Source: an uncultured Schlesneria sp. (lineage in GTDB: Bacteria; Planctomycetota; Planctomycetia; Planctomycetales; Planctomycetaceae). From it: a stretch of 64,000 nt of DNA. The notes under the pieces are model-generated. The model did no database searches. It had not been told where the DNA came from and worked only from the letters and a program-made list of their open reading frames with translations. The stretch is from contig CAILLA010000305.1 of NCBI GenBank assembly GCA_903834925.1, positions 7,115 through 71,114 on the forward strand, in the 5' to 3' direction. The position numbers and the translations under genes are program-made. Position 1 is the stretch's first letter. Every line of letters starts with the position of its first letter. Positions 27,910-62,040 of the stretch are shown in pieces.

Positions 27910-27936
27910 GAGTTCTACACCGAGTTCTACATTTTT
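27910..27936 (+). promoter_or_regulatory. tandem GAGTTCTACA motifs (candidate integrase arm-type sites), left end
   Basis: GAGTTCTACAccGAGTTCTACATTTTT. A near-identical pair lies at 61848-61873. Confidence 0.5.
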
Positions 27937-29201
27937 GGTTTCGAGTCCTCGGAACCATCGGTTTGAGGAACTGGTGGAATCGAGTTTTCTGATTCGATCT
28001 GAACTTTTCGTGCTTGTGCCGCTGCTCGCATCGCGGGCTTCGTGTTGATGTAGTAATTCTCTGTCGTGGCAACAGTGGCATGCCCCAAGAAGTCCTTAAC
28101 CACCACGGTTGGAACTTGATTCGCGATTAACTCTGAAGCACAGGTCGATCGGCAGTTCTTCGGGACGTAGTGTGCATCTTCTGGGATACCAGCCGCTGCT
28201 TGGATTCGATGCCAGTCCTTGTAGAGCTGTCGGTAAGTTTCGTATGGCCAGGGCAATACTGGATCACTTGAACCGTTTTCATCGGATTTAGCTTTCCAAT
28301 CGCTCAGCACCTTCGCCAGTTCTTGAGCCATTGGTACCACTCGTTCCTTCCGACTTTTGGAAGTTGACGCTCGAACTCGAACATCAAGAGTCGTGAAGTT
28401 AACATCATCCCAACTCAGACTGAGAATCTCACCGCGTCTGAAGCCGAGGTAATAGGCAACGTAGAGAAATACTCGCCACCAGTCCGTTGACCTCATCGTC
28501 AGGATTAAATCAGGACTTCTGATTGCCACGATCATTGCCATGAAATCTTCTTGAGGAATGATCGTCGGTTTCTTCCGGTGTTCCTTGATGAAGACGTTTC
28601 CAAATTCTGGAATCTCAGTAACCAACCCTCTTCGTTTTGCCCACTTCATTGCGGCCCGTACATGTCGGAGATCACGGTTTACGGTTGCAGGGGCTACGCC
28701 TTCTTTTAGACGAGCATTCGCAAAATCTTCCAAAGTGCTGAGTTTCACTGATGACAGCTTTTTCACTTTGATCGTGGCTGAAAACATCCGCAAAGCACGT
28801 TCGTAGAAGTCGAGAGTTGTTGCAGGCTTTCTAGCGGCATGTTTCTCAAGAAAATCCTTGGCAAAATCATCCCAAAGGATCTCATTTTCAGATTTCCGTC
28901 CCGCTTCAAGTTCCCGTTCCAGTTGCCTTCGTTTTCCTTCGGCATCCTTTTTCACAGTTGTCCGTGTGGATTTCCATCGTTCCTTCCACTCCGTTCCGTC
29001 CGGGGTCGGTTCCCACCATCTGAGGTACCAAAACGGAGACTTGCCGTTTGGGTGCTTCAGGATTTGGACTTTTCGAACGTTTGGTTCCATCGTTTTCTCA
29101 TGAATGCTGGACTGGAGATTTACCAATCCACCATTCTTCCTTTTGAGCCTTGCCAGTCCCTTTCCGTTTGGAAAGAAATCCGCAAGGACAGTTCTCGCCA
29201 A
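27927..29201 (-). CDS. int: tyrosine-type site-specific integrase
   Basis: LGFRRGEILSLSWDDV (Arg), HYVPKNCRSTCASELI (H..R) and LGHATVATTENYY (His/Tyr). It sits next to the tRNA. An alternative start at 29090 (MEPNVRK) is possible. Confidence 0.9.
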   Translation of the reverse strand: MARTVLADFFPNGKGLARLKRKNGGLVNLQSSIHEKTMEPNVRKVQILKHPNGKSPFWYLRWWEPTPDGTEWKERWKSTRTTVKKDAEGKRRQLERELEAGRKSENEILWDDFAKDFLEKHAARKPATTLDFYERALRMFSATIKVKKLSSVKLSTLEDFANARLKEGVAPATVNRDLRHVRAAMKWAKRRGLVTEIPEFGNVFIKEHRKKPTIIPQEDFMAMIVAIRSPDLILTMRSTDWWRVFLYVAYYLGFRRGEILSLSWDDVNFTTLDVRVRASTSKSRKERVVPMAQELAKVLSDWKAKSDENGSSDPVLPWPYETYRQLYKDWHRIQAAAGIPEDAHYVPKNCRSTCASELIANQVPTVVVKDFLGHATVATTENYYINTKPAMRAAAQARKVQIESENSIPPVPQTDGSEDSKPKM

Positions 29202-33679: not shown

Positions 33680-34741
33680 TTATTCCTGGTTCATTTTCAG
33701 GGCTAATTTCAGTTTCTCGATCACCAAATCACGAAGCTTGGATGGTTGAACCACCTTGATTCGGCCTGTCCAGGAAAGAATCCAGCCAAGAATCTCTTCC
33801 AATCCATCCACCTGGAATCTGAGTGTTACACTTCCATCTTTTTGATTTGTCACCGTTTGCGTTTGATGCCAGACAGTTTCCGTAACAACCTTGGCAGCAG
33901 CAGGAGTCACGTTGACTTCGACGTCATATGTCTGATCCCCTCTGAAGACGGCCCATGCATTACCGAAGTAATTTCGAAGACTGAAGTCCTGAGGAACGTT
34001 TGCAGGGTCGTCAAGCATCCGCAGTGTCTTGAATCTGGTGACTCGGTATGTCCGTGGATCGGCTTCATCCACGGGACGTGCGATGATGTACCAAGCATTT
34101 TTGATCAGGCAGAGTCGGTAGGGGTGTAGCCGAAGTTTCACCGGGGAAGCTTCGTACGGACTCTCATACTGACCGGTGATCTGCTTTCCTTTGAGAAGGG
34201 ATAACTGAACTGTTTTGATCACTTCATGGTGACGACTGTGGTCTGCTAGTTTCAGGTCAAGGACAGCCACCAATCGGGAAGCGTCTTCAAAGAGTTGTTG
34301 TGCTTTCTCACCTGATGAAGCAGCAAGTTTTCTTGTTGTGAGTGTTGCTCCCTTGCTGACATCCAGTCCTTGTGTTTGCATCAACGCAGTAGCCACAGTT
34401 TGTCCAAAGACCTCATCGTCAGTCAGGCTCAATACAGGAAATCGAAAATCAGAACGTACTCTGATGGTCTGGTCCGTATGGTCCTTGAAGTATGGGACTC
34501 CAGAGAACTCCAGGACTTCCAGATCCCGGTAGACCGTTCTTTCAGAACATTCAAGTTCTTCAGCGATGGCTTTCGAAGTCCATCTTCCCCGACTTTGGAT
34601 CAGGTTCAAAACTCCTAAAACTCTCGCGATCCTGGCATTCTGTCGTACTCTTCGATCCCGATCGGGCCGTGTGGTAATCGGGTGAGGTTTGCTGGACTTG
34701 TTTCCAGTGGTTTTTGGGACTTTGGTTGCCTTCTTCGTCAT
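33680..34741 (-). CDS. HTH-WYL-WCX transcriptional regulator
   Basis: N-terminal wHTH (RWTSKAIAEELECSERTVYRDLEVLEFSGVPY), a WYL core (KNAWYIIARPVDEADPRTYRVTRFKTL) and a C-terminal LEEILGWILSWTGRIKVVQPSKLRDLV. Confidence 0.85.
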   Translation of the reverse strand: MTKKATKVPKTTGNKSSKPHPITTRPDRDRRVRQNARIARVLGVLNLIQSRGRWTSKAIAEELECSERTVYRDLEVLEFSGVPYFKDHTDQTIRVRSDFRFPVLSLTDDEVFGQTVATALMQTQGLDVSKGATLTTRKLAASSGEKAQQLFEDASRLVAVLDLKLADHSRHHEVIKTVQLSLLKGKQITGQYESPYEASPVKLRLHPYRLCLIKNAWYIIARPVDEADPRTYRVTRFKTLRMLDDPANVPQDFSLRNYFGNAWAVFRGDQTYDVEVNVTPAAAKVVTETVWHQTQTVTNQKDGSVTLRFQVDGLEEILGWILSWTGRIKVVQPSKLRDLVIEKLKLALKMNQE

Positions 34742-35835
34742 GCTGTTTTAGTACCTCGTCGTTGGATGATCTGGAGTTTCCTGGAAAACTCGTTCGGAAA
34801 ATGAGCTTTCAGGAATGCAGCCTGATAGGTCGACACAGCCTCTGCCAAATGATGACTCATGCAGGCGGCTCGTGTTGCCGCATCCCAAATCCTTTCGAAG
34901 AGTCTACTTGCCTCAGGTTCATTAACGCCATTCCCGACAGCCTGGACAATAAACCAATCTTTCGTCGTTGTAGCCTGCTCCCATTGCCGTCTAGCGACTG
35001 CTTTGATGAAGGAATAGGCGTCGGTCATGGGGATGTCTGCTACTCGATTCATGATTAGCATGATTTGTTCTTGAAACAGGATCAGTCCCCGTGTTTCATG
35101 AAGCATCTCTGTAGCACAACAGCCCTCTGACAACTGGCCTTTTCTCTTGGAACCTCGGTAGATGTATTCGTCTAAAATCCCCGCTTCATGAATTTTACCA
35201 AGTTGAATTCCTGTGATCGCAGCAATATCAGTGAGACAGCTTGGCTTTAAAACAGGAAGGAGACTTCGAATTGAGTCTCCTTCACATTGGCTGATTCCTT
35301 CGACATCTCGGGATTGGAGTATTTCAAACGCAGCCGCGTCATTCAAAGGGATTGACGTCAGATCAAAGTCTGAATCTGTTTGTCGGATTTCCTGGGCCAC
35401 AAGGCAGGGTATCGCAGACAGAGAAGTGGACTGCTGGAAATTAACGACATCACAAGAGGCTTCCTCCAGCATTGCTTCGAAGTCTTCTTCAGACCCGTTC
35501 GTATGCGAATTTGCATCAAACCTGAATTTAATGGTTCCAGTAGAATTTGCTTGCAGAAATCGCTCGTAGGGCAACCCGTGCTCTGTTGGATCAACTCCAG
35601 AGAAATTCATCAGATATGAAATCAGTGAACAGCATCCGGCCCCCGTCAGACGGCAGGAAACACCCTGAGCCTTCAGTTGTTGGACTTTCTCGCTTGCATT
35701 TTCAAAAGCACCAATTTGGCCATTTGTCTTCACCGTATCCAGTTCCTGACGTAATCGTTCAGCTACGAAGGGACGGTCCTTGCCGTTGAACATGATCGTC
35801 AAGCGTTCTTGGCAGAGCTGCCGAAGTTGATTCAT
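34738..35835 (-). CDS. truncated DnaE (DNA polymerase III alpha)-like protein, probably catalytically inactive
   Basis: Colinear similarity to internal DnaE segments (GAGCCSLISYLMNFSGVDPTEHGLPYERFL; LFQEQIMLIMNRVA; MSHHLAEAVSTYQAAFLKAHFPNEF). It has no PHP domain and no C-terminal clamp/tau/OB regions. The catalytic PDFDVDF position reads IKFRFDA. Confidence 0.7.
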   Translation of the reverse strand: MNQLRQLCQERLTIMFNGKDRPFVAERLRQELDTVKTNGQIGAFENASEKVQQLKAQGVSCRLTGAGCCSLISYLMNFSGVDPTEHGLPYERFLQANSTGTIKFRFDANSHTNGSEEDFEAMLEEASCDVVNFQQSTSLSAIPCLVAQEIRQTDSDFDLTSIPLNDAAAFEILQSRDVEGISQCEGDSIRSLLPVLKPSCLTDIAAITGIQLGKIHEAGILDEYIYRGSKRKGQLSEGCCATEMLHETRGLILFQEQIMLIMNRVADIPMTDAYSFIKAVARRQWEQATTTKDWFIVQAVGNGVNEPEASRLFERIWDAATRAACMSHHLAEAVSTYQAAFLKAHFPNEFSRKLQIIQRRGTKTA

Positions 35836-44589: not shown

Positions 44590-45713
44590 TGGCCTCCTCC
44601 AGATTCTTGCTGGTTGAATATTTGGTTAATGATGGCTGGTAACAGGGCTTGCGTCTCAGCAGCAGCAGCCGTCAGGAGTTCACGGGCCGCTTCAACTTTC
44701 TCAAATAACTCCCCGAACCATATCTGTTCCTTATAAGCAGGAACCGGGGTCGGAACTTCGAGCAACACTTTGGCACTAGTTGTTCTATTGCGGTCCGCAC
44801 TTCCAGGCGACGCTTGACCTACGTGGTGTAGTCCTTCGGACGTGAGGAGAAAGAAACAAATAAAGCGGGATGTGGCTACACCGGAGAGTGGAACGTAAGT
44901 CAAGTACCGATGCGAACCGTATCGACTATCGTCTTCAGGCTTGGCCACGGCAATCGCCCCCTCCCAAGCCTTGATGTTGCTAATAAGGATATCTCCGGCA
45001 TGCACAAGTTGGGGTCTTTCCCAAGTGATATCGCATCCTTGTAGCGGTGGGTTGTGAAATGTCCCCTTTCCAAAGGATCTGACGGAGACCCCCGGGTATT
45101 CAGTAAATGGGTCAACCAAAACTGGTCGCCTAACAAGTGGAGCAACATCTCCCAATCGATGGCGATCAGCATCTCGTACAATTCGATTGTACGCAGAAAG
45201 AAGCATCCCTTGGAAATGTTCGCCAATTTCATTCAACCGCGTGTTTGCCGCTTGAATTTTGAGACTCAATTCGTCGAGGTATTCTACCACTTGCTTTTGT
45301 TTGGCCAATGATGGAAGGCTGACATGAACATTTGCGATGTCTCGTTCTTTGAGGGAGACGTTTGCAGTGCCTTTCATTAATGGAACAAACAGGGAGTCCT
45401 TCTTTGCCAGAAGCAAGTAATAGAGATACTTTGCATCACACCTTTGGTTATCTTTGGTTTGAAGGGCCACCAGGAGGTCTGCCAACGCAAATTTGCCATC
45501 CTGATAGTGAATACGATGAAGAGCAGCGTCACCGTGGCCAGTTGACGAAACCAGCGGAATACAGACTGTAGGCCCTTCAAGCTGATAAGTACTTGAAGTC
45601 CGTCGGTAGGCTGCAGTAACGACGAGTGGGTATGCCCCAACCTCCGTCTTGAGCGTTGGTGATTCACCTCGAACCAAGTGACAGAGGTCCCCAAGTCGAA
45701 AGCTTTGAGTCAT
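44586..45713 (-). CDS. hsdS: type I restriction-modification specificity subunit
   Basis: Two target-recognition halves separated by a conserved coiled spacer (LPSLAKQKQVVEYLDEL...; VPAYKEQIWFGELFEKV...). It has 4-nt overlaps with both hsdM and the DUF2513 gene. Confidence 0.85.
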   Translation of the reverse strand: MTQSFRLGDLCHLVRGESPTLKTEVGAYPLVVTAAYRRTSSTYQLEGPTVCIPLVSSTGHGDAALHRIHYQDGKFALADLLVALQTKDNQRCDAKYLYYLLLAKKDSLFVPLMKGTANVSLKERDIANVHVSLPSLAKQKQVVEYLDELSLKIQAANTRLNEIGEHFQGMLLSAYNRIVRDADRHRLGDVAPLVRRPVLVDPFTEYPGVSVRSFGKGTFHNPPLQGCDITWERPQLVHAGDILISNIKAWEGAIAVAKPEDDSRYGSHRYLTYVPLSGVATSRFICFFLLTSEGLHHVGQASPGSADRNRTTSAKVLLEVPTPVPAYKEQIWFGELFEKVEAARELLTAAAAETQALLPAIINQIFNQQESGGGQ

Positions 45714-47251: not shown

Positions 47252-47367
47252 CTTTTTGTTCTATCGTATAAACCACGTTTGACCCACACACCTGTCTCGG
47301 CCGAATTAACCAATAAAGTGCACTTTAATTTACTCACCGGTCGACCATTTACATCCACAACACCCCC

Positions 47368-49119: not shown

Positions 49120-49195
49120 AGAAAGCGGGTAACTCAGCCAAAAATAGTCATTGGCTCACTTCGCAGTATTAAAACTGCCGCGTTCATTCGAAATA

Positions 49196-50323
49196 TCAGG
49201 GAAGTACTTGCCCTTCGTTGTTGGCTGCATTTCTCCATGCATCAAAGACGAGTTTGTTGAGTTTAGACTGAACCCTTCCAAATTCAGTATTTGCATAGGG
49301 TTCCTTAATGCCTTCAACAAACTCGAAGTCGTAATTCCAAATCTGAGTGCCCCCAGCACCAGCGTTTATCGCACTGAGCAACTGCCAGTTGTGCGGTGTC
49401 GTCATCCGAAGTCGCATTCGGAGATGGTGGCATCGTCCTTCAGAGGCGATATTGCGTGCTGGGAATACTAGGTTGCATGGGGACAGTGGATTGTCAGTGG
49501 TCACTGCGTTCACGTGGGTCGAGAAATAGCAGATCCCGTCGTAATCGTCTTGCTTTGTGATCCACTGAAGTACGATCTGTGGGATTATGTATTCAGGCTT
49601 ATATGGAGCCTGCGGGTACTTAACGATGATGGAACACAAAGCAACTAGTGGCCACAGAATCAAAAAAGAGGTCAGAAGCTCTCGAATTTCCGGCTGGTCA
49701 GGTAACTGTCCGTCGGGGGACGTGTAGAAGAACAACCTCTTTGGACGATTTGACAAGTTCAGAATTGTGATCTTGTGGTCCTTGTCCAGCCAGAAGGCTG
49801 ACGCGTGAAGCTCATGAAAAGGAGGGCGACCCATCTCTGCCCAGCAAGTAAAAAGAGAGCCACCAAGGTAGATGCACGGCAGGCCTGGGATACTGTACCT
49901 TTGGGTGGCAACGAGGTGCCGCTTCTCAAACGGTATATGGAAAAGGTCTTCTCTTGTCAGTGGACTCTTGAGCTCGCGTCGGACGCGGTACATAAGTCCA
50001 AGCTCACTGTGAGCGAGGCCCTTGAGAGCGTGTTTCGCTACAATATCTCTCAGAGGCTCGATTCCCTCAACGAAACTCTGGTAAGCATCCTGAGGGTGTC
50101 CTGCGAATGTCGCTCGAACAATCTCAGGAGCTTTGCTACAGAACGTCTCAATGTCCTTCCGCCTTGCACTCACAGCAGACGCTACGTCGTGCGGGTCGGA
50201 AAAGCTGTCAAGCAGAGTGGTATATCTGCTTAGCAGTGATTCCACGAAGCCCTGGAAATCATCCGAATTCCGAGTTATTGGGAGCTGGAGAGAAGGATGC
50301 TCAAGCAATTCACGTATATTCAA
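49196..50323 (-). CDS. RES-domain protein (NAD+-targeting toxin family) with an N-terminal extension
   Basis: TQRYSIPGLPCIYLGGSLFTCWAEM (Arg and Glu of RES) and GICYFSTH (Ser). It starts 14 bp after the hsdR stop. Confidence 0.7.
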   Translation of the reverse strand: MNIRELLEHPSLQLPITRNSDDFQGFVESLLSRYTTLLDSFSDPHDVASAVSARRKDIETFCSKAPEIVRATFAGHPQDAYQSFVEGIEPLRDIVAKHALKGLAHSELGLMYRVRRELKSPLTREDLFHIPFEKRHLVATQRYSIPGLPCIYLGGSLFTCWAEMGRPPFHELHASAFWLDKDHKITILNLSNRPKRLFFYTSPDGQLPDQPEIRELLTSFLILWPLVALCSIIVKYPQAPYKPEYIIPQIVLQWITKQDDYDGICYFSTHVNAVTTDNPLSPCNLVFPARNIASEGRCHHLRMRLRMTTPHNWQLLSAINAGAGGTQIWNYDFEFVEGIKEPYANTEFGRVQSKLNKLVFDAWRNAANNEGQVLP

Positions 50324-50336
50324 GGGAGTGTCCTAT

Positions 50337-52703
50337 TTAGGCGGCGTAGAGAAGTTGCTGAAGACGACCCACGGCTTCAAGAAGCTTATCAGGTCCACCA
50401 AACTTGCTCGCAATTTCGACCACATTCCCATGAGTAGAGAGTGGAGGAACTTCCAGGACATCTGGAACTGAGAACTGGCTCGTTCCGTGCTCAGCGTACT
50501 TGTCCAGAAGCTCATCGAGGATCGTCTTGGCTTCAAGTCCGAATTGATCAAAGAAGTCGACCTTTTCACTTCGTAATTTCTCAGCCCTTTGCTTGCGTGT
50601 CAGTAGTGGTGCATTGAACGCCAGATGGCAGAGGAGGTCGAAGGGATCAGCTTCCGGGTGGCCAGCCTGGGCACAGAGTTCTTGGAAATCGATCCCTCGG
50701 TCTTCCAGCATTTGGACTACAGCAGACCTCTGATCAAAGTCAGACCATTGTTTCCGCAGGTCTTCAGGGCTGGTATAGAGCGTTTTTACCGTCTCTGCGA
50801 CGTATTGCGTGATTTGAACGGTTCGCAGCTTTGAACCGTCAGAGTCCAGATCCATTGTGACTTCGGTATCAATTCCACCGGGTCCACCGTGGGCATAGAA
50901 TTTTCGTGGCTCCGTTGTTTCGTCATCAAAGTCTGGTTTGCTTGTTCCTTCTTCTGCTGGTGGTTTTTCTTCTTCTTCCACCACTTCGGAACCTTCAATT
51001 GTTTCACCAGCTTCGTCAATTGTCTCGGTAGTGGCGAGAGATGGCTCTCCATCGAAATCAGGGTCGGCGAACAGTCTCGTGGCTGATCCGGTGTAGTCCA
51101 GAATGTTGAAGAACAATTTGCCTTTTTCTTCACGAACCCGAGTTCCTCTCCCAATGATTTGCTTGAATTCAGACATTGCCCCTACGGTTCGCACCAGAAC
51201 CACGTTCTGACAGGTTGGGGCGTCAACTCCCGTTGTCAGCATCTGGGACGTAGTGAGGATCACAGGGTAAGGCTCCTCAGGGTCCTGAAATTTGCTGAGA
51301 AAGCCCCTACCGATCGAGCCTTCATCAGATGTGACTCTGGCCACGTATTCTTCGCCAAGGGGAAGATTTTGAACAATATCTGCATTCAGATTGTTCAACA
51401 CTCTTCGCATCTGGTCCGCATGTTCTTGATCCACACAGAAAACAATCGTTTTGGATAGACGGTTTGTTTTCTTCAGGAAGTCCGTCAGATGGCGTGCAAT
51501 AGCATCAGTACGAGCCTGAAGGGAAACCACACGCTCAAAATCCTTGGTGTGGTATTCCTCATCTGGGATCTCACGACCGTATTTGTCGAGCTGCCCTTTG
51601 GTGGGCCTCCAACCTGCTGCATCGAATGTTGTCAGAATCCGATGAACCCGATAGGGAGACAGGAATCCATCGGCAATTCCCTGCTTCAGGCTGTAAGTGT
51701 AGAGGGGGTTGCCAAAGTAGAGGTAGGAATCTCGATTGTCTTCTCGTAGTGGTGTGGCCGTCATTCCAAGTTGATAGGCCGGTTCAAAATATTCCAGGAT
51801 CTCCCGCCAGTTGCTTTCGTCTCTGGCACTCCCCCGGTGGCATTCATCCACCACGATCAGGTCAAAGAAATCAGGAGCATATTCACGGTAGAGCCCTGGT
51901 CTTTTTTCGTCCTTTGCAATCGCTTGGTAGATTGCAAAGTACATCTCTCGGCTCTTGATGGCCCCCCCCTCGATCTTCCATCGGGCATCTCCGAAGGGGG
52001 CGAAGTCCTTATCTTTTGGGTCGTCAACCAGGACATTCCGGTCTGCCAGAAACAGAATTCGAGGCTTTCGGGTTGCATCGGTATTGGCATTCCATCCGGC
52101 AGACCAAAGCTTCCAACAGATTTGAAAGGCCACCGTGGTCTTTCCGGTCCCTGTCGCAAGAGTCAGTAGACAACGTTTTTGACCAGTCAGGATTGCTTCG
52201 ATTGAACGATCGATGGCAATTCTCTGGTAGTACCGGGGAATCTTTTTCGGGTTGTAGAAGTCCGGGACCAGTCTGGCGTTGGCCACTTCTCCAGAGAGGC
52301 CTTGCCCTTGCTGGTATCGAAACCAGAGTTCTTCGGGAGTGGGAAACCGTTCGACCTCTTTCTCCTGGGAAGTGAAGTAGTCGAACTCGATGATGTCCCG
52401 GCCATTGGTGGCGTAAGCAAACTTGAGGCCCAGGATGGTGGCGTAATCCTTGGCCTGCTGAAGACCATCTCCCGCTGGTCGTTTGTCGGATTTCGCTTCC
52501 ACGACTGCCAAAGTGATGTCCCGGTTGTACCTCAGAAGGAAGTCGGAGAACTTCTTCTTGAGTCGACGTGGCTTCCCACCGGATACAATGATTCGTCCAT
52601 CGGTGAAGGAAGTCTGCTCGCTGTAGAAATGCTTGTCGCCATCCCAGCCGGATGATTCCAGCTTGGGACAGACCAGCTTTCGGCAGGTATCGGCTTCGTT
52701 CAT
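50337..52703 (-). CDS. hsdR: type I restriction endonuclease R subunit
   Basis: HSDR_N start (MNEADTCRKLVCPKLESSGW), helicase motifs LATGTGKT and VVDECHRGS, and an EcoEI-R-C-like tail. Confidence 0.92.
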   Translation of the reverse strand: MNEADTCRKLVCPKLESSGWDGDKHFYSEQTSFTDGRIIVSGGKPRRLKKKFSDFLLRYNRDITLAVVEAKSDKRPAGDGLQQAKDYATILGLKFAYATNGRDIIEFDYFTSQEKEVERFPTPEELWFRYQQGQGLSGEVANARLVPDFYNPKKIPRYYQRIAIDRSIEAILTGQKRCLLTLATGTGKTTVAFQICWKLWSAGWNANTDATRKPRILFLADRNVLVDDPKDKDFAPFGDARWKIEGGAIKSREMYFAIYQAIAKDEKRPGLYREYAPDFFDLIVVDECHRGSARDESNWREILEYFEPAYQLGMTATPLREDNRDSYLYFGNPLYTYSLKQGIADGFLSPYRVHRILTTFDAAGWRPTKGQLDKYGREIPDEEYHTKDFERVVSLQARTDAIARHLTDFLKKTNRLSKTIVFCVDQEHADQMRRVLNNLNADIVQNLPLGEEYVARVTSDEGSIGRGFLSKFQDPEEPYPVILTTSQMLTTGVDAPTCQNVVLVRTVGAMSEFKQIIGRGTRVREEKGKLFFNILDYTGSATRLFADPDFDGEPSLATTETIDEAGETIEGSEVVEEEEKPPAEEGTSKPDFDDETTEPRKFYAHGGPGGIDTEVTMDLDSDGSKLRTVQITQYVAETVKTLYTSPEDLRKQWSDFDQRSAVVQMLEDRGIDFQELCAQAGHPEADPFDLLCHLAFNAPLLTRKQRAEKLRSEKVDFFDQFGLEAKTILDELLDKYAEHGTSQFSVPDVLEVPPLSTHGNVVEIASKFGGPDKLLEAVGRLQQLLYAA

Positions 52704-52992: not shown

Positions 52993-55900
52993 TCAATCAA
53001 ATCTTCTCTCTTCCTCGTCTTCTGACCTCTCTACGGAATGACTCAGGCCCTCAATGTAATCTTGAAGCCAACGAACAACATTGTTGTTCTTTTCATTGGC
53101 AAGCCATTGTTGAGCTTCTTTCCGAAGATGTCGGTACATATCGCTGGGATTACCACACCAGCCGCGGCAATGGAATCGGCCGTGAATTGAACTCGCTATG
53201 TCGTCATTTGCGCCATACCGAGCAACAAAATCTCTCGTGAGTCTGCCCGCCGGTGTCATATCAAATGTTTGGGGAAGAGTTCGTGCCAACCATTGACCTC
53301 TTTTCTTCACATCACTATCGATCCAACTGAATAACAGCTCTGCAGGAAGGAACTGTATAGGCCCAGGGCTGTGATCGGTAATTCCCTTCAGATAACCATG
53401 TTCCAGCCAGGACTGAAGGCCGCGATTTCGATCGTCTTCTGTTTCTACAAATGCCTTCGTAATACACGAAAATGCCTGCTTAGGATCGGATTTAATCAAT
53501 TCCGTCAAAACAGTCTCTTGATTGCCGTCCAGATCCATCAATGTGGACCATTCCCGGCTGCCAACAACCAGCACTCGTTCAAACAATTCCCATTTGCGAT
53601 TCGGAAAACGCTCAATGAATCTTTTGGCCATTCTTGACCAGTAGAAGCAAACTTCATTTCTAATTCGCCGATCACCCATAGCTTCGCTGGTTAAGACTCG
53701 AAACAACAGATCTTCCGGCAGGTCGATCGGTGCCTCCTCATTTTCCATGGAAACGGTGTGACACATTTGTAGTGCATTACCCCAGGACGACGCTGTTCCC
53801 TGTTCCAATTGTACGGAAATCAATTCTTCAAAGACGATTGAAGAGAGCGTTCGCAATTGGCTTGCAAACCACCATCTTTCGAGCCTCTCAAAGCTGATCA
53901 TTCCTTTTCTGCACAGGTCAATTACCTTTGTTACCAGTTTATCTGAGATCCCTGAGGCAATCATTAGGTCAGAGATTCTCGGTGAGAGACTCTTCCTCTT
54001 TGCGAGTTTCAGCAGGTGCGATTCCCACTCTGAAGGATTGGATTGAAAAATCGCTGACAGATACCCGGCTAGAAACAAAACATCTTGACTATTCGCGTTT
54101 CTTTCTTGAGCTGAGACTAAAGTGGAAAGAAGTTTCCGTGTGGCATCTCTCTGGGCAATCCGGTAACCCAAGCCGTAAACAGAGTTCGAACTTTCTGAAA
54201 TAAGCCAGTCAACTTCAACAACAAGCAGTTTGGGTGTCTTCACAATCTGATCAGCAAGTTCATCCAATATGCGATACACTTTATCTACTGGCTTAAACTC
54301 GTGATCATGAAAATCATCCGAGGTGACGTGTTTGACATATCGCTTCAATCTGGACGAGAAAGTGTCACCTTCAAGACGATTGTAAATCTCTTTCATCGTT
54401 CCGATGACTTCAGGTGGCAGTTTGTCTGCTCGGTTCCTAAGTTCAATTTGAAGAAATCGAATTAAGCTTTTCGTGTCCGAAACTGAATCCTGTTCAATTA
54501 ACTGCAACGCGTTCATTACAGGTGTGATCAAACACGGAATTGTCAGGCCGGCATGACCAACCGCTAGGATAGCAGAATTCAAATGAACTCGATCTATATC
54601 CGGCCAGTTGGAATGAAGCTCCAAAAGGAGACCCCAGACACGCTGATAGGCATTCCAAAGTTCCTCGTAAGTCTTTGGCCACCAAAATTCAATTGTCCGT
54701 CGTAATCCTTGATGTTCTGGACCTACAAACCGCATGCCATCATGTATGGAAAGAGCAGAGACGCAGGCCTTCAGGCAAATTCGCCGTATTTCAGGACCAC
54801 CTGTCTCCAGGAATTCTTTCAGGACCTCAAAGCGAAGAGAAGGATCTGACTCCGTGGAAGCCATTCCGGGCGTGAGGTTGAATAAACTGCAAAATGTACC
54901 GGTGGCGTTGTTTGTGTTTTTGGCATTTTCTGCCTCAGCAAGTTTCAGCAACAAACTCACCGCTCCTTGGAAATGGTCTTTCCATACTGCAATACGTTCA
55001 AGTGCCCAGACAATGGATTGGCGTGCGTCGTCAAACCTTCTGAGTTGATCGACTGACATTGATCCTAAAGTACGTTGTAAACAGCGAAGAGTATGATGAG
55101 GGCAGGCCTCCGACAAAGATAGGATGAGATATCCGAGTTTGGGATCATCTGGAAAGAAGTTCTCAGGAATCAAGCCGCCTCTTCCCAATAATCGTTCAAC
55201 AGCTTTTTCGGCTGTTGCCGATTCGTGGGAATATTTCAGCATTTCAATAAACGATCTCCACAATGACTCGGGCATTCTCTCCATTATTTTTGAGATCTCA
55301 AATGTCGAGCCATGTGTGTCCCAGAACTCCTTGTTAAGAAAGATCTGGAACAATTTGGGCGTCAGATAGAGCGTCTTTCCACCTTGAATTATTCGGCGTT
55401 TCTTCAGGTAGTGAATCTCCGACTGGAAATCGTCCCAAGTCAGTCCCTCAATCAAACTGACAATGAACTTGGCTTCGTAAGCTAACTGATCCTGAAAGCC
55501 GAACTGCTGAAATAGGGAGATGTACCGAAGAATTTTCCGCCTGGTTTTAACTTGTTCGGATATTGCTGAATCGTATCCAGCAATGAAGCTATTCCAGACA
55601 GAAACAAATGTCGGTTCCTGCAAAAGGTCCGTATTCTTCAGCCGCAGATTTTCACCAAGCACATGAGCCACACGAGGGCTGCCTTCGCAGAACCAAGCCC
55701 ACCTTTTGGCATCATTCTCACCAATCTCATGGTCCATCAAAATCGACTGGATTGTCTCTGGGCTGACCGGCTCAATCTGTACAACGTGGGTTAGTTCATC
55801 ACGGGAATCTTCTGGCCCATGATCAATTGTGATCAGTTTAATCCGATCAGACCTTGATTTTAGCATGTTCCAAATCTCGGCACGGTCTGCACGTGGGCAT

Positions 55901-57042
55901 TCATCGACAACCAGGAGTACAAAGCAACTGTTATCCGGGTGTAACAATTCTTTGATAAACGAACTCTTAAGCAGTGCCGCACCTTCTTTGGCGTACAACG
56001 TCACTGGAGCCAGATCATCAGCAGATGACAATTCCAAAGCCAATCGAGTTTTCCCTACACCTGGCTCACCCAAAAGTCGAAGATGAGAAGTCACGCCTGA
56101 CCGAATTTCTTGCCGAAGCTCTTCAATTAGTTGTGTATGCTCAGGGCCATAATGAATTTGCGGCCCCATATCTTCATCGCAAGCCCAGGAATCTCTTGAT
56201 CGGAATTCTGCCTGATCAATTTTCAGAAGCCGTGAGCAAAGGCCTGGATACCTTCGGTAATGCCCAAGCAATTGGGTCTGCCCCCAAACCTCAACAGCGG
56301 CTTTTGGATACCCACAATCTGAAAAACACTTCCTTAAGTTCTTAACTGCATTACGATGATCGCCATCTATTGGGTCAATCCCAAAACAGATGAAAACGAT
56401 CCTTTTGCCCTCTTTTAGGGCATTCTGAATCTCAGACCCAAGATGCTTAAAGTCGACCGATCGGGATCCAAATAGTTCTTTCCTCACAACAGACAATTGC
56501 CAGAGTTTGAATTCGCCGGTTTTAATTTGGAATCGCGTACCCGCTGTCAACAAGTCATCTTGAAGTAGTGTGTATCCTTCATCCTCCAGAACAGATGCAT
56601 CGACACCGCCATCCGGTACATTTACCTTGCTGGAAATTGAAATCCGCGTTATCGGAACTTTGATTTCCGCAGCTCTTGCCCAAAGTAAATCCCGAAAGGC
56701 TTTGACAGCGTCCTGAGCAGTCAAGTCATTTAGAACTTGGTCGCTGAGATCGAACAAAGCTGTTCGACTGCCGACAAGCTTTGATCTGCTCTTCTTGAGG
56801 GCATTTGATCTACTCTTCTCAAGAAGCTTGATTTGCTTTCTGAGGGACTGAATGTAATCCCTGGTGGCATGTCTCTCACCCTTTTTCACCCGGCTGACCT
56901 GACTGGTGGTTACCGTCAGGATTCTTGCAATTTCCGCCTGGCTTAGACCGAAGTCAAGAAGGATATCAACCTGTTCGTTAAACTGAATATTGTCTGGATG
57001 AGTTAAATAGGCCCGGTCCATCTGCTTCCTCCCTGCTATCAA
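52993..57042 (-). CDS. HTH + Mrr-like nuclease + STAND/AAA P-loop NTPase + long helical-repeat C-terminus (Avs-like)
   Basis: XRE-like HTH (LSQAEIARILTVTTSQVSRVKKG), PDGGVDASV...RFQIKTG (Mrr-type D...Q-x-K), Walker A GEPGVGKT, Walker B LLVVDEC, and roughly 850 aa of Leu/Glu-rich repeats. Confidence 0.7.
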   Translation of the reverse strand: MIAGRKQMDRAYLTHPDNIQFNEQVDILLDFGLSQAEIARILTVTTSQVSRVKKGERHATRDYIQSLRKQIKLLEKSRSNALKKSRSKLVGSRTALFDLSDQVLNDLTAQDAVKAFRDLLWARAAEIKVPITRISISSKVNVPDGGVDASVLEDEGYTLLQDDLLTAGTRFQIKTGEFKLWQLSVVRKELFGSRSVDFKHLGSEIQNALKEGKRIVFICFGIDPIDGDHRNAVKNLRKCFSDCGYPKAAVEVWGQTQLLGHYRRYPGLCSRLLKIDQAEFRSRDSWACDEDMGPQIHYGPEHTQLIEELRQEIRSGVTSHLRLLGEPGVGKTRLALELSSADDLAPVTLYAKEGAALLKSSFIKELLHPDNSCFVLLVVDECPRADRAEIWNMLKSRSDRIKLITIDHGPEDSRDELTHVVQIEPVSPETIQSILMDHEIGENDAKRWAWFCEGSPRVAHVLGENLRLKNTDLLQEPTFVSVWNSFIAGYDSAISEQVKTRRKILRYISLFQQFGFQDQLAYEAKFIVSLIEGLTWDDFQSEIHYLKKRRIIQGGKTLYLTPKLFQIFLNKEFWDTHGSTFEISKIMERMPESLWRSFIEMLKYSHESATAEKAVERLLGRGGLIPENFFPDDPKLGYLILSLSEACPHHTLRCLQRTLGSMSVDQLRRFDDARQSIVWALERIAVWKDHFQGAVSLLLKLAEAENAKNTNNATGTFCSLFNLTPGMASTESDPSLRFEVLKEFLETGGPEIRRICLKACVSALSIHDGMRFVGPEHQGLRRTIEFWWPKTYEELWNAYQRVWGLLLELHSNWPDIDRVHLNSAILAVGHAGLTIPCLITPVMNALQLIEQDSVSDTKSLIRFLQIELRNRADKLPPEVIGTMKEIYNRLEGDTFSSRLKRYVKHVTSDDFHDHEFKPVDKVYRILDELADQIVKTPKLLVVEVDWLISESSNSVYGLGYRIAQRDATRKLLSTLVSAQERNANSQDVLFLAGYLSAIFQSNPSEWESHLLKLAKRKSLSPRISDLMIASGISDKLVTKVIDLCRKGMISFERLERWWFASQLRTLSSIVFEELISVQLEQGTASSWGNALQMCHTVSMENEEAPIDLPEDLLFRVLTSEAMGDRRIRNEVCFYWSRMAKRFIERFPNRKWELFERVLVVGSREWSTLMDLDGNQETVLTELIKSDPKQAFSCITKAFVETEDDRNRGLQSWLEHGYLKGITDHSPGPIQFLPAELLFSWIDSDVKKRGQWLARTLPQTFDMTPAGRLTRDFVARYGANDDIASSIHGRFHCRGWCGNPSDMYRHLRKEAQQWLANEKNNNVVRWLQDYIEGLSHSVERSEDEEERRFD

Positions 57043-57640: not shown

Positions 57641-57864
57641 GGTTTTCTTTCTTTTAGGAGAGGGATGGAAAAGACAACCACCTCAGATTCCAGACCGTAG
57701 GTCTATTCCTCTGAAGTGATTGTCATCTCTTTTCAAAGTACCCTGCCTTTGAGTTCTACTGTCTTGCTTGTCCTTCTATGAACCTGCTTCTTAACTTGAG
57801 TGTTATTCCTGTTCCTTTGGTTATGCATGTTCAATTCCTTTGTTTTGTTGTTCTTCTTCTAAAT

Positions 57865-58254
57865 CTACCTGTTATTTTCCTGGTTCTGATACTTCTCATT
57901 CAACTTCGAACTCAACTTCGAGTTGTGCTTTATTTTGAGCGTGTCGCTCGTTTTCTGTGGCAGCAACGCCAAGCTGGTTTTGGGTGGCTCCAACTGTAGC
58001 CATACGAGTTTGCCCACTTTGTTTGAATGATTGACAGCGGCCCCTGTTTTCTCATCCGCAGCAGCTTTGGCATCCCCGTCTCCACATGCAGATACCGCAT
58101 CCGCATCTCCTTTTATGGCCTGTGCTCCCCACGCAATATCGGCATGGACGTAATTCCATCCCATCCACAAGGCAAGGCGTTCCAAATGAAAAAAGCCCCG
58201 TGGCCCAAAAGGAACACGAGGCTGTGGCGATTTGACTTGAGAACGGTCAACCAC
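57865..58254 (-). CDS. hypothetical protein
   Basis: 129-aa ORF starting 9 bp after the stop of the DnaX-like gene. Confidence 0.35.
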   Translation of the reverse strand: MVDRSQVKSPQPRVPFGPRGFFHLERLALWMGWNYVHADIAWGAQAIKGDADAVSACGDGDAKAAADEKTGAAVNHSNKVGKLVWLQLEPPKTSLALLPQKTSDTLKIKHNSKLSSKLNEKYQNQENNR

Positions 58255-58262
58255 AATACATC

Positions 58263-59063
58263 TTAAATCAGCCTTCTTTTACGATTGCCAAGCGTCGCTG
58301 CTTGAGATTGTGGCCTCAAGGAACCAAAGAGTTCATCAAGGTATTCATCGGTGAGTTTTCCACCGGTTTCAGAAAGCACCTTCCGAGAAAACTCGCCTAA
58401 TGGACGCATTTCGCAGTTGTAAGCCTCGCTCACCCGTTCCAACTGTTGGCGAGAATTGAATGAAACCTGATGATTTCTCAACTGATTTTCGAGGAAATTA
58501 ACGGCTTCTTCTATTGTTGGTCTGGTGATCTCGTATTCGTAGGACAGAAGACGGCTTCGAACTGCTTCCTCGATCTCATCTGGATGGGTAGTCGCTAATA
58601 GGATTGTCGCTTTTGTACCTTCAAGCATCTTCCTGAACCGACGAAGTAAGTCAGGTTTCATATCTTGAAGTTCGTCGATAAACACTATTTCCCAAGGCCG
58701 CTGAAGAATGAGTTTTAGGTCGTCCAGTATTGCTTCCGTGACGTCCTCACCACCATATTCGTGATATTCGACAATTGGACACGTGGCATCATTTATGGCC
58801 TTCTTGCACATTGAACAAGAGTCACAAGGCTCGTACTCACCAACCTGTCGCCGCTGACAAAGCTTCGCTCTCGCAACGATACGAGCGAGTGTGGTCTTTC
58901 CTGAACCTATTGGACCATTCAAAAATATCACTTGTGATAACTTATTGTTTGCCAGCATCCCCGTAATGCGTTTCAGAACTTGTTTATTACCCACAACATT
59001 TTTGAAAAGTTGTGGGCGATCCCCGTCAAATGGTTTCGCCACCGTGTTGGTTTCACTCATCAA
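58263..59063 (-). CDS. DnaX (clamp-loader gamma/tau N-terminal)-like AAA+ ATPase, truncated
   Basis: FKNVVGNKQVLKRI..., Walker A NGPIGSGKTTLARIVA, a 4-Cys Zn module (LCQRR...EPCDSCSMCKK), Walker B VFIDELQDM, sensor-1 ILLATTHP and SRL in place of SRC (VRSRLLSY). The protein is only 266 aa. Confidence 0.7.
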   Translation of the reverse strand: MMSETNTVAKPFDGDRPQLFKNVVGNKQVLKRITGMLANNKLSQVIFLNGPIGSGKTTLARIVARAKLCQRRQVGEYEPCDSCSMCKKAINDATCPIVEYHEYGGEDVTEAILDDLKLILQRPWEIVFIDELQDMKPDLLRRFRKMLEGTKATILLATTHPDEIEEAVRSRLLSYEYEITRPTIEEAVNFLENQLRNHQVSFNSRQQLERVSEAYNCEMRPLGEFSRKVLSETGGKLTDEYLDELFGSLRPQSQAATLGNRKRRLI

Positions 59064-59206
59064 ATACTCTTTCTATTGGTTTAATTCGATGTGGGCGTAC
59101 CGCCCTCGTTCAGAACATGAAACAATTTCATGTCCCTTGGACTGCAATCCTGCAATCTCGCTTCATCTCCTTTTCTGATCAGTTGTTCCAATTGCAGCTA
59201 AAGATT

Positions 59207-60424
59207 TCAGTCGTCTGCAATCTCCTCAGCTTTTGGCAATCCTGAAAATGGGTTGTTGGCCCCAAAAGGAGGTGATCTGGATTCTGCAAATCGGTAGTAG
59301 ACTTGGATTCCTTGTCTTCGAATTCTTGCATGCTTTTGAGATTCACGTACGATCCGAGATTCAACAATCCCTTCGTCAATCAACTGCTTTAGGTGGGCCT
59401 TTACCGTGTTATGAGAGAGTCCCGTTTGTTCCATTCCCAGCGATCGTGTGAACACTTTTCTGCCGAAATCATTGTTATCTGGAATCGTGTTTTGATACTT
59501 TGGATCAGCAGCAAAGGCTTCGAACAGAATCGTTCCAGTTTCAGCGGCATAGGGAGTCAGTTTGGATAATTCCCTCGGGATAGGAAGTGAATTTAAGAGC
59601 TCTCGGGTTACCCTGTAGTCTGGAATCGTGATCGCTGTTTCAGAATCGCTTTTGAATTCACCGTTGACGTTGCTTAATTCAATTCTCAATGCAGCAGTCG
59701 CCATCAGGAGTCGATTCAGAATCAGAGCATCACTTGGCTTTATTCCCGCACGGAGCTGATCTCTGAAGGGGCATCTGTATTCCCGTCGATGCTTCACCTG
59801 AAGAAGAACTTGTCGAAGTTTTGTGAAAGCGGGGCTGGCTTCGGTGCCTTGCAGTCTTGAAAAGTGGTATCCGAATCCGCTGAGGGAACGGTCCGTTTGT
59901 CTTGCCATCAGAGATAGAGTTGGACCAATTTGTGGGAACCTGGTCTGCTTGTCGGAGATTGTCAAGACGGAGGGTGGAGAGACTCTCCCGGTGTCCCTTG
60001 TGGCTGCTTCCGATGCATATCGGACAAGATTCTCATGTAGGCTCCTGAGCACTACTACTTCTGTGTCCTTGAAATCAGCATCTACCAGATCCCGAAACTG
60101 TTTGATGGTATCAACATGTTTCACGGTTTCGGGAAGGATGTTGACCACTCTGTCCGTGATTAGACCTTCAGCTGCTGGATCATCTGAAAAGATTGCAAGA
60201 TTCAGCGGAATCCCTAGACGCCCTGAGGCAAGTGCCATGAATATCATTAGACTGATGCGGTCGACTCCGACTCCCAAATAATCTCCCAGAAGTGTGGCAA
60301 TTTCAGAAAGTGCATGGTCCCCAAGAATCTCAAACAGATGGTTTGGTTCGTTTGGACTTGTACTGATAAGATCAGTAGCGTTCCGCTCATCCACTCGAAG
60401 AGCTTGCCGTTCGTTTTCAGGCAT
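59207..60424 (-). CDS. hypothetical island protein with a C-terminal winged-helix-like segment
   Basis: 405-aa ORF. The C-terminal VKAHLKQLIDEGIVESRIV looks wHTH-like. No Walker motif is present. It overlaps the upstream HTH gene by 8 nt. Confidence 0.55.
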   Translation of the reverse strand: MPENERQALRVDERNATDLISTSPNEPNHLFEILGDHALSEIATLLGDYLGVGVDRISLMIFMALASGRLGIPLNLAIFSDDPAAEGLITDRVVNILPETVKHVDTIKQFRDLVDADFKDTEVVVLRSLHENLVRYASEAATRDTGRVSPPSVLTISDKQTRFPQIGPTLSLMARQTDRSLSGFGYHFSRLQGTEASPAFTKLRQVLLQVKHRREYRCPFRDQLRAGIKPSDALILNRLLMATAALRIELSNVNGEFKSDSETAITIPDYRVTRELLNSLPIPRELSKLTPYAAETGTILFEAFAADPKYQNTIPDNNDFGRKVFTRSLGMEQTGLSHNTVKAHLKQLIDEGIVESRIVRESQKHARIRRQGIQVYYRFAESRSPPFGANNPFSGLPKAEEIADD

Positions 60425-60794
60425 CCTGAACCTCGCCGCTGGTGATACCCTGATTGGAACGGAGAACTTCCAAAAGGTCTGTCCGCGTGTAAACGAACTT
60501 CCGCCCTATTTTTTGAGCTCTGATTGCTCCAGACAGCCTGAGGTCTCGGAGAACATGTTGCTTAACCCCACAAGCTTGGGCTGCCTCAGCCTCATCCAAA
60601 GCGATCCGCCCAATCGGCCAATCTAGGACGGAAAGGGTTTCCCGCAGTACTTCTTCAACGAGTTCTCGGAGTAGACTGCGGTCAAACGTCAGTTGTAGCG
60701 CCGCTGGGTTATGCGAGCTGCCGCTATCGGGAAATTGAATAGAAGAATGTGCCATTGAGAACCTCCAAAGTTTAATTGGAGGAGATTGTGGCAA
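60417..60794 (-). CDS. excisionase/AlpA/MerR-like HTH (HTH_17) DNA-binding protein
   Basis: LDEAEAAQACGVKQHVLRDLRLSGAIRAQKIGRKFVYTRTDLLEVL. An alternative start at 60755 is possible. Confidence 0.65.
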   Translation of the reverse strand: MPQSPPIKLWRFSMAHSSIQFPDSGSSHNPAALQLTFDRSLLRELVEEVLRETLSVLDWPIGRIALDEAEAAQACGVKQHVLRDLRLSGAIRAQKIGRKFVYTRTDLLEVLRSNQGITSGEVQDA

Positions 60795-60850: not shown

Positions 60851-61846
60851 TCAGTTTTCTGGATGAGATTCGATTCTCACTTTGTCATTGTTTATGACAA
60901 TTGTGAATGGAACTCCTTCATCAACAAAAAGTTTATTTGCACGGCTTGCACAAGTTCCGACTGCACCTTTTGGATTATTTGGGGTGTCTGACCATGCCTC
61001 ATCAATGACGTCTCGGATGTCTCGCCATTTGTCTCGCCTTTTCCATAAGGAGGTGACCAATTTTACTTGCTGAAGTTGAAGGGAAATCTGCCTCCCCTTC
61101 CAATAAAATGATCCCCCTGGTCCAGGACCGTCTTCTCGTGGAAGTTCCAATTCAGAGCTTTCTTGATTCTCCAAGCAATACTTCACCGCTTCTTGAAGCA
61201 GGATCATTGGTCGTTGATTGAGTTTGAGTTTCCTCTTTTTTCCGAAGTCCTCAATGAACCAAAACGGTTGCATCCACATTTGCAGAGAAAACCCGTCAGG
61301 ATATCCGAATTTGTTTGGATTTTTAGCAGCTGCACACCACCAAAGGAGACGAGCACCAAAAACATGGGGTCCGCCTAGCAAGGTTTCGTATTCAGAAACA
61401 CTGAGCGGTGGCCTGTCTGGGAGCAGTTCACGTTTGAACTCAACCTTTCTGGAAGGACGTTGGTGGACCGGGGCTTTCGTCAGCCCTCCTCGGATTGCCA
61501 AAATCGATTGTTTGCCTATCTTGGTGATTTCATCTACGAAAGTGCCGCAAAGCTCAATGAGCCGGTCGAACTGATCAAGGTGTCTGAGCATGGCTTGATT
61601 TCGTAGCCATCGTGACCAGTAATAGGCTTCTTCAGTTTCTGAAATTTCCTGAGTATCGAGCTTTGTTCTCAGATCCTTCAAATAGTCAAAATACTCATTT
61701 TCAAGGTCGTCAGTCACCACAAACGGTTGTAGAAAAAAAGTGAAATTCTTCAGGTTTCCAGCAGCGGTTTCCAGCGAGTAATTCTTGGCATTTTGGTTTG
61801 ACTTTGAAGGCATTCCGTGATTTCCAACGGGTTTGAGTGGCCCCAA
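60851..61846 (-). CDS. hypothetical island protein
   Basis: 331-aa ORF. It is the first gene inside the right island end, and its start abuts the GTTCTACA motifs. Confidence 0.5.
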   Translation of the reverse strand: MGPLKPVGNHGMPSKSNQNAKNYSLETAAGNLKNFTFFLQPFVVTDDLENEYFDYLKDLRTKLDTQEISETEEAYYWSRWLRNQAMLRHLDQFDRLIELCGTFVDEITKIGKQSILAIRGGLTKAPVHQRPSRKVEFKRELLPDRPPLSVSEYETLLGGPHVFGARLLWWCAAAKNPNKFGYPDGFSLQMWMQPFWFIEDFGKKRKLKLNQRPMILLQEAVKYCLENQESSELELPREDGPGPGGSFYWKGRQISLQLQQVKLVTSLWKRRDKWRDIRDVIDEAWSDTPNNPKGAVGTCASRANKLFVDEGVPFTIVINNDKVRIESHPEN

Positions 61847-61971: not shown

Positions 61972-62040
61972 GATTCAAAATCCAGTGTCAGCAATGACGT
62001 GTGGGTTCGAGTCCCACCATCGGCACTATACTGCGAATGG
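61972..62040 (+). repeat. attR: partial tRNA-Leu 3' copy (not a functional tRNA)
   Basis: It matches 27796-27865 except for the 6-nt variable-arm loop, one 1-nt indel and one substitution. It lacks the acceptor 5' strand and the D-arm. Confidence 0.85.

Follow-up and report, generated by a model that had tools for sequence, protein, structure and literature searches.

A collar-less DnaX-derived ATPase and its Rep-like partner as a candidate split replication-initiation module in integrative elements of Planctomycetota

For AAA+ ATPases of the clamp-loader clade, only two forms have to our knowledge been described, namely pentamers assembled through a collar (gamma complex, RFC, gp44/62) and machines of the RarA/RuvB type. 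In clamp loaders, the C-terminal collar holds the five subunits in a ring, and a conserved basic switch residue, Lys100 in the B-D subunits of Escherichia coli, makes contact with the template backbone and acts as a gate on the catalytic glutamate (Kelch et al. 2012, PMC3331839). Among initiators of mobile elements, the Rep proteins of Staphylococcus aureus pathogenicity islands (SaPIs) bind iterons of 5-6 nt via a C-terminal winged-helix domain, and these iterons are located immediately 3' of rep, in opposed orientations (PMC9371898). Mobile elements of Planctomycetota appear to be little characterised. Here we describe an integrative island in a 64,000-nt stretch of DNA, hereafter the window, from an uncultured Schlesneria sp. 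of that phylum (assembly GCA_903834925.1, contig CAILLA010000305.1), and within it two adjacent genes, encoding a DnaX-like ATPase and a 405-aa protein (u405), which together with a short repeat array are considered as a candidate replication-initiation module. The literature searched contained no account of a DnaX-like family without collar in mobile elements. The ATPase fold, the logic of a Rep with iterons and tRNA-integrated islands are all known already; new are their combination and the loss of clamp-loader-specific features.

The DnaX-like open reading frame (ORF) occupies positions 58263-59063 on the minus strand (266 aa), and gene callers on identical public contigs point to the ATG at 59060 as the likely start, which gives a protein of 265 aa. 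Its product is an AAA+ ATPase of the DnaX clade; it comprises domains I-II, includes a Zn-Cys4 module and ends in the basic sequence RKRRLI. The top NCBIfam match was TIGR02397 (dnaX_nterm; E-value 8.3e-26, 91.1 bits), followed by more than 20 further DnaX models and by holB at 1e-13. Furthermore, Pfam DNA_pol3_delta2 matched at 7e-13 and PHROG 5846, 'clamp loader of DNA polymerase', at 3e-26, and the best match among PDB sequences was E. coli gamma/tau, residues 11-248 (5e-13). The AlphaFold2 model, obtained with 34 homologs as input, had a predicted local distance difference test score (pLDDT) of 90.4. In Foldseek the top 33 PDB matches of this model were all E. coli gamma/tau chains, with E-values down to 9e-14; the template modelling (TM) score against gamma chains was ~0.78 on the query at 20-22% identity, and RFC subunits and RuvB came next. 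It should be added that the 91.1 bits stand against a cutoff of 250 for the dnaX equivalog, and that all PRK dnaX models also scored far under their cutoffs.

IstB_IS21, DnaC and Bac_DnaA gave no profile matches to this protein, the top matches being all DnaX, HolB or RFC, and a DnaC/IstB-type helicase loader was rejected on that account. A RarA/MgsA identity was likewise ruled out, since no MgsA C-terminal or AAA_assoc_2 domain was matched in Pfam after the AAA+ module and the protein ends after its lid domain. Conservation and intact motifs excluded a pseudogene or a chance ORF. The initial annotation, made from the sequence letters alone, had read the ORF as a DnaX/RFC-type ATPase; profile, PDB sequence and fold agree with it in placing DnaX first, and an unrelated AAA+ clade such as RarA/MgsA or IstB was nowhere the best match.

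Motif columns were defined by aligning the 34-member family with the E. coli gamma sequence. Every motif listed in the initial annotation was recovered opposite its gamma counterpart: the Walker A lysine K56 corresponds to gamma K51, Walker B D130-E131 to D126-E127, the zinc cysteines C69/C80/C83/C86 to C64/C73/C76/C79 (kept in 34 of 34), sensor 1 T159 to T157 (serine or threonine throughout the 34 members) and the arginine finger R171 to R169, where the SRC motif reads (S/N)RL. Sensor 2, absent from that earlier list, was located at R220 (gamma R215). The Walker A lysine, the Walker B Asp-Glu pair, the arginine finger and the sensor-2 arginine are invariant in all 34 sequences. The protein is, as predicted from these conserved catalytic residues, a catalytically intact ATPase derived from DnaX; moreover, since its invariant arginine finger acts in trans, oligomerisation through contacts between AAA+ modules is suggested.

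What follows domain II in DnaX is missing. The dnaX_nterm match ends at position 247 of 355 and the gamma match at residue ~248, while the last helix of the AlphaFold2 model terminates at residue 246 and is followed by ~20 disordered residues. The collar (domain III) is absent not only from this protein but family-wide, and so are the tau domains IV-V. The column of gamma K100 is occupied by glutamate in 13 members, aspartate in 10 and alanine in 4, inside a 5-residue deletion, and the segment holds no conserved basic residue. Gamma R133 and K161, which we take to be DNA contacts, align with proline (23 of 34) and glutamate (24 of 34). Because the collar is absent and the switch lysine lost, two defining features of such a protein, the ATPase is predicted not to be a canonical clamp-loader subunit.

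These losses bear directly on one alternative, namely that the ATPase makes contact with the beta clamp of the host, or with its gamma/delta/delta' at their AAA+ face, and thereby diverts or blocks host or phage replication, maybe together with the DnaE-like protein of the same island (see below). A DnaX-derived protein that has kept its Zn module and its AAA+ interface elements, the arginine finger and sensor 2, speaks for such hijack or mimicry of the host replisome. Nevertheless, the collar that holds the pentamer (PMC3331839) is absent from the whole family, the switch lysine has given way to acidic residues or alanine, the DnaB- and alpha-binding domains of tau are missing as well, and the obligate partner and the repeat array would be left unexplained. 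The suggestion of the initial annotation that the protein might join or mimic the host clamp loader is, at least in canonical form, argued against by the missing collar and the missing switch residue for DNA contact, and we regard this explanation as quite improbable.

The protein database returned 47 matches at E <= 1e-3. The ~40 closest relatives are almost all 258-265 aa long (~263 aa), a few evident fragments aside, and DnaX-like matches of canonical length appear only under ~32% identity. All named relatives belong to Planctomycetota (Planctellipticum variicoloris, Rubinisphaera sp. and a Planctomycetaceae bacterium). Judged from these sequences, the short length is thus a trait of a conserved family of ~263 aa. 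The earlier description of a 'truncated' paralog was accurate in that the protein ends after domains I-II without a collar, as model match, predicted helices and family length all indicate; it does not hold in the sense of a one-off truncation. A basic C-terminal tail RRRxxI-COOH (window positions 58263-58300) was also observed family-wide, after a disordered linker of variable sequence, and looks like a docking peptide.

Wider surveys added little to this family. The survey of genome contigs with the full family alignment gave one distant match in Clostridia (L012, 26% identity) and was swamped by the generic Walker-A pattern; viral contigs scanned with P-loop-free patterns gave no match, and the metagenome scan gave 4 loci only. 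Statements on taxonomy and co-occurrence in this work rest on 30 loci gathered by other routes and designated by L-numbers.

In every one of the loci that cover the upstream sequence, a homolog of u405 lies directly upstream of the ATPase gene, at ATPase identities ranging from 34% to 100%. In the window this partner gene is found at 59207..60424 on the minus strand; partners at related loci have ~344-416 aa, and the family comprises 98 representative clusters among 1.84 billion proteins, mostly of 340-436 aa. The AlphaFold2 model of u405 (pLDDT 77) consists of a five-stranded alpha/beta core, resembling superfamily 3 (SF3)/AAA+ proteins (residues 56-175), a helical domain (198-305) and a winged helix (327-379). 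At the sequence level, 44 diverse family members, compared by profile with the PDB and scanned against Pfam, gave only helix-turn-helix (HTH) matches of the ArsR/MarR type, located C-terminally, Pfam HTH_24 reaching 2e-4 for u405 and 4e-6 for the best family member. The fold matches in the PDB, weak but consistent in kind, were ORC5, the C-terminal region of NrS-1 polymerase, Cdc6, MCM7, RuvB, E1 and SaPI5 PriRep. Predicted viral structures (BFVD) matched better, with a top E-value of 6.6e-9 and a TM score of 0.56, and those with names were mostly DNA primase, SF3/D5 helicase, VirE, DUF3987, NrS-1 polymerase-like helicase domain and primase-polymerase.

The nucleotide-binding motifs of this core are gone. 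A Walker A motif was seen in none of the 44 sequences, which have S/T-D-x-P-G-A-D/E in place of the P-loop and hhhh-R-S/G in place of Walker B. The recognition helix of the winged helix, S-Y-N-T-V-K-x-H-L, is on the other hand strongly conserved in the same sequences. Profile-profile comparison revealed no relationship between the ATPase and partner families. On these grounds we read u405 as a Rep-type protein with an SF3-helicase fold, which has probably lost nucleoside triphosphatase (NTPase) activity and is predicted to have kept sequence-specific DNA binding. The 405-aa neighbour, listed as an unknown in the initial annotation, hence turns out to be an obligate partner with a fold of the SF3/D5/NrS-1 C-terminal type and a winged helix.

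Cross-locus comparison of the 100-150-bp gap between the u405 and ATPase genes revealed an array of the 7-mer ATTGCAG, which a generic repeat search of the region had not flagged as such. The array extends over 59142-59222 and has, on the minus strand, the layout > <, 34-bp spacer, > >. The first copy, GATTGCAG at 59215..59222 (-161 from the ATPase start codon), falls in the final codons of the partner gene and is translated there as ..IAD; the inverted copy CTGCAAT follows at 59191..59197 (-137), and the 34-bp spacer separates it from the tandem pair GATTGCAG-GATTGCAG at 59142..59157 (-96 and -88). The tandem pattern matched once in the 64-kb window against 0.05 expected, and it occurs in exactly one copy per locus, at the same place, in 11 related loci. 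Nowhere else in the window do four copies fall within 120 bp, and the 300 simulated sequences never contained more than 2 copies.

The offsets of the array in L001 are identical to those in the window, with proteins ~50% identical, and the remaining intergenic sequence is unconserved among relatives that share these offsets. In L002, L017 and L014-L016 the array has moved as a block, and the variants ATTGCGC/GCGCAAT occur in the most distant clades. The spacer measures exactly 34 bp in the window, L001, L002, L017 and L014, and its sequence is likewise unconserved. Comparing the recognition helix with the repeat variant present (ATTGCAG vs ATTGCGC) gave no informative covariation. From its sequence and placement, the array may be a set of iterons or an operator.

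The second of these possibilities leads to a purely regulatory interpretation, in which u405 would be a transcription factor of the winged-helix (ArsR-like) kind, with a large domain for sensing or oligomerisation, binding ATTGCAG as operator of the ATPase promoter, and the ATPase would be a regulatory remodeller (in induction, excision or immunity) with no direct role in DNA synthesis. The tandem sites fixed at -96/-88 in relatives with 51-59% protein identity are operator-like, and the spacer is kept in length while not being consistently AT-rich. The sole partner domain detected at the sequence level is an HTH of the ArsR/MarR type, one source annotating a homolog accordingly, and other HTH regulators flank the module. 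Against this, the N-terminal two-thirds of the partner resemble primase-helicases and replication ATPases of the ORC/MCM type and not known sensor domains, and a scan of the gap for sigma-70 promoters and terminators found none, with the reservation that the consensus may not apply to this phylum. It should also be noted that an operator role is compatible with an origin, as plasmid and SaPI initiators autoregulate via their iterons. Overall, we consider a regulatory pair unlikely.

We favour, tentatively and at somewhat less than an even chance, a split replication-initiation module in which the DnaX-derived ATPase serves as motor or loader. The proposal is supported by the intact catalytic residues of the ATPase, the gene pairing, the partner fold, its winged helix, the array, the precedent of SaPI Reps with their iterons, the excisionase-adjacent and attachment (att)-proximal position of the module and a neighbouring primase-polymerase in two clades. 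In the latter, a helix-bundle gene of the NrS-1 primase-polymerase type adjoins the module in L006-L009 and, independently, in L017-L019; the two probable primase-polymerase genes (L006:11341-12333 and L017:4779-5531; Pfam PF22763, 2.7e-24) are 56% identical to each other. According to this proposal, excision would be promoted by the integrase and the adjacent HTH_17 protein, after which the Rep-like partner would bind the array via its winged helix and oligomerise. Since its NTPase motifs are lost, the partner would not be a self-loading helicase; because it presumably cannot hydrolyse NTP itself, the ATP-driven step would be supplied by the DnaX-derived ATPase, either as remodelling of the nucleoprotein or as loading of a host replisome component (DnaB helicase, or the beta clamp with DNA polymerase III). 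The excised circle would then be copied by host enzymes, helped in some relatives by the element-encoded NrS-1-type primase-polymerase. Homology, motif conservation, the losses of collar and switch residue, the pairing, the array and the setting in a mobile-element backbone are observed; binding of the array by the partner, interaction of the two proteins and the replication outcome are what we infer.

Several points weigh against such a role. The PDB fold matches of u405 are weak (best E-value 5.5e-4, TM 0.18-0.35) and the model itself is of moderate quality at pLDDT 77. The AT content of the 34-bp spacer, 0.35-0.59 compared with locus averages of 0.41-0.53, is not consistently high, so that no unwinding element is obvious beside the repeats, and the fixed distance between the array and the ATPase start codon is just as compatible with a promoter operator. 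We know of no AAA+ ATPase of the clamp-loader clade that acts as helicase loader or initiator motor, and known helicase loaders (DnaC, IstB-like) belong to the initiator clade. Moreover, the island encodes no recognisable primase or helicase. On this last point the initial annotation, which saw no replicase, primase or helicase in the element, was right as far as primase and helicase are concerned, but an initiator-like gene, u405, is present, albeit with its NTPase motifs absent.

The island is integrated at a tRNA-Leu(caa) gene (27766-27850, plus strand). The attL site at 27820-27851, at the tRNA 3' end, is repeated exactly and directly as the 32-bp attR at 61996..62027. The tyrosine integrase lies at 27927..29201 on the minus strand (Phage_integrase, 5e-25), and an integrase 89% identical to it ends a related element in L027. 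The G+C content is below that of the flanks, and nearly all island genes are on the minus strand. Reading from attR, the order is a 331-aa protein, an HTH_17 protein, u405 and the DnaX-like ATPase, then a block of cargo; the other arm, after the cargo, comprises an 870-aa protein, DUF932, a 188-aa protein, PD-(D/E)XK, a 289-aa protein, a DnaE-like gene, WYL, two small genes of 134 and 132 aa, MBL/RMMBL and the integrase. The 331-aa backbone protein beside attR (60851..61846, minus strand) is 31% identical over 264 aa to a 322-aa protein of L006, and its homolog in L006-L009 carries a Trans_reg_C winged helix. The HTH_17 protein of the AlpA/excisionase type (60417..60794, minus strand; PF12728 at 9e-8, PHROG excisionase/regulator), whose gene overlaps the start of u405 by 8 bp, bears out the excisionase-like neighbour suggested earlier; homologs occur at the same position in L006-L009.

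Downstream of the ATPase gene, a 129-aa ORF (57865-58254) was seen only in near-identical elements, and gene callers disagree on it. An A-rich low-complexity stretch (57760-57900, minus strand) lies within or after this ORF. Directly downstream of the module, the cargo begins with a 1349-aa protein (52993-57042, minus strand), which has an N-terminal HTH_3 domain and matches PADLOC PD-Lambda-4_A over residues 306-795 (6e-31); this PD-Lambda-4_A-like giant ATPase is probably defence cargo. It is followed by a type I restriction-modification (R-M) locus (44586-52703, minus strand) with hsdR at 50337-52703, hsdM at 45710-47251 and hsdS at 44586-45713, two minus-strand genes being inserted between hsdR and hsdM, one for a weak RES-domain protein (49196-50323) and one for a 583-aa protein without family match (47368-49119). 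Further minus-strand genes encode an RmrA-like protein with HTH_3 and an IrrE/M78 peptidase domain (42826-43968; PADLOC RmrA models down to 6e-43), an unannotated protein of 182 aa (42250-42798) and the 870-aa backbone protein (39547-42159). The last has no Pfam, PHROG, PADLOC or PDB sequence match; a protein with 33% identity to it stands beside DUF932 in L024.

Given this setting, the ATPase and its DNA-binding partner might themselves be a two-gene anti-phage defence or anti-defence cargo, acting as sensor and effector. Apart from the island being rich in defence cargo (PD-Lambda-4_A-like, type I R-M, RmrA-like), pairs of AAA+ and HTH proteins are common in defence systems. Yet the best PADLOC match of the ATPase was a partial TRIP13 at 7e-6, with no stretch passing alone, and that of the partner only a weak Csa3 HTH. 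The position of the module is fixed while the genes downstream of it vary, no effector domain was recognised, and the pair has a conserved cis-element of its own. A defence function of this pair consequently appears very unlikely.

The DnaE-like gene which the initial annotation had pointed out in the same island was confirmed as a member of a conserved family. This mini-DnaE (34738..35835, minus strand, 23 kb from the ATPase gene; Pfam finger domain at 5e-27) consists of a palm remnant and fingers, and its family gave 38 matches, most of ~350-390 aa, the one named member being a Planctomycetia metagenome-assembled genome. It aligns only to E. coli alpha residues ~300-399 and ~576-786, residues 400-575 being replaced by 47 residues. 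At the place where we presume the alpha catalytic residues Asp401/Asp403 to fall, it has lysine and arginine ('IKFRFD'), and it is apparently polymerase-dead. The gene always occurs in a block of mini-DnaE, WYL, 134 aa, 132 aa and MBL (in the window WYL at 33680-34741, the two small genes at 33080-33484 and 32205-32603, and MBL/RMMBL at 30815-32119). Usually, DUF932, the 188-aa protein, PD-(D/E)XK and the 289-aa protein come before the block, and after it comes a tyrosine or serine recombinase (L024, L025, L027-L030). The block may represent an independent system.

For the replisome hijack considered above, a second protein derived from DNA polymerase III that looks catalytically dead would be suited as a decoy, and both genes are conserved backbone genes. 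Contrary to this, the mini-DnaE is without the C-terminal part of alpha, where the sites for binding beta and tau are located, and the DnaX-like and DnaE-like genes are each found without the other. Loci with the mini-DnaE block were viewed over a 10-kb flank, which covers the attL arm and cargo. L026 has the block and an integrase with no DnaX-like gene, partner, DUF932 or PD-(D/E)XK within 10 kb upstream, back to the integrase. Conversely, L010 has a different, 344-aa gene at the position of mini-DnaE and the ~10-kb element of L005 has no block, both of them carrying the DnaX-like module. The two genes are located on different arms of the backbone, and their linkage is not obligatory.

Across the related elements, the genes downstream of the ATPase vary, this being the position of the cargo in the window island. 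The module is fixed beside HTH_17 or DUF1580 regulators and near the integrase or an att end wherever these are in view. L010 and L003 have a protein of 684/704 aa and unknown family beside the module. No counterparts of the module companions found elsewhere, namely the primase-polymerase, 684/704-aa and DEAD-helicase genes, were detected in the window. In L010, DUF932, the 188-aa protein, PD-(D/E)XK and the 289-aa protein are found again, placed downstream of the ATPase, which joins both ends of the island into a single backbone. The attL arm of this backbone was observed to end either in a large serine recombinase (L024:16623-18344, L028:17471-19489) or, as in the window (27927-29201), in the tyrosine integrase, which indicates that the integration module has been swapped. 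A relative of the module is also present in Planctellipticum variicoloris.

The backbone is recognisable and may serve to define a family of integrative elements of Planctomycetota with large defence cargos. If the split module proposed here is real, it would be a new route by which an integrative element starts replication, and would reveal a new evolutionary course of a core replisome gene. That a split initiator has recruited a clamp-loader ATPase as its motor, so far only in integrative elements of Planctomycetota, is possible but on present evidence doubtful. We would be similarly cautious about the consequence that, if this reading is true, such a split initiator would be a type distinct from DnaA/DnaC, ORC/Cdc6 and self-loading SF3 Reps.

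Compared with described systems, the module shares with the Rep/PriRep proteins of SaPIs and phage-inducible chromosomal islands (PICIs) an SF3-type fold, a C-terminal winged helix and opposed repeats at or after the 3' end of the gene, and, like these islands, the element is integrative and carries the module after an excisionase/AlpA-type gene. Unlike SaPI/PICI Reps, the partner lacks Walker A and B motifs, and the repeats, which number just 4-5 and show no clearly AT-rich centre, are succeeded by a separate gene for the DnaX-derived ATPase; a primase is missing from the window island. The gene order, a DNA-binding initiator and then an AAA+ ATPase of ~260 aa, with sites in or next to the initiator gene, is also that of lambda O/P and of DnaD-like or Rep proteins paired with DnaC/IstB-like loaders; in those pairs, however, the ATPase belongs to the DnaA/DnaC/IstB initiator clade and not to the clamp-loader clade.

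As in phage clamp loaders (T4 gp44/62; PHROG 5846/168), a clamp-loader-clade ATPase is encoded by a mobile element, and an active ATPase is combined with an inactive partner subunit. The ATPase differs from these in covering only positions 11-198 of the 380-position PHROG profile, and no clamp gene was recognised in the island. With DnaX gamma/tau itself it has in common domains I-II, i.e. the fold of the AAA+ module and lid, all catalytic motifs and the bacterial-type Zn-Cys4 module. It departs from DnaX in having neither the domain III collar nor tau domains IV-V, in a shortened K100 segment and in (S/N)RL for SRC, and, finally, in being the gene of a mobile element that is always placed beside a non-clamp-loader partner and bears a basic tail of its own, RRRxxI.

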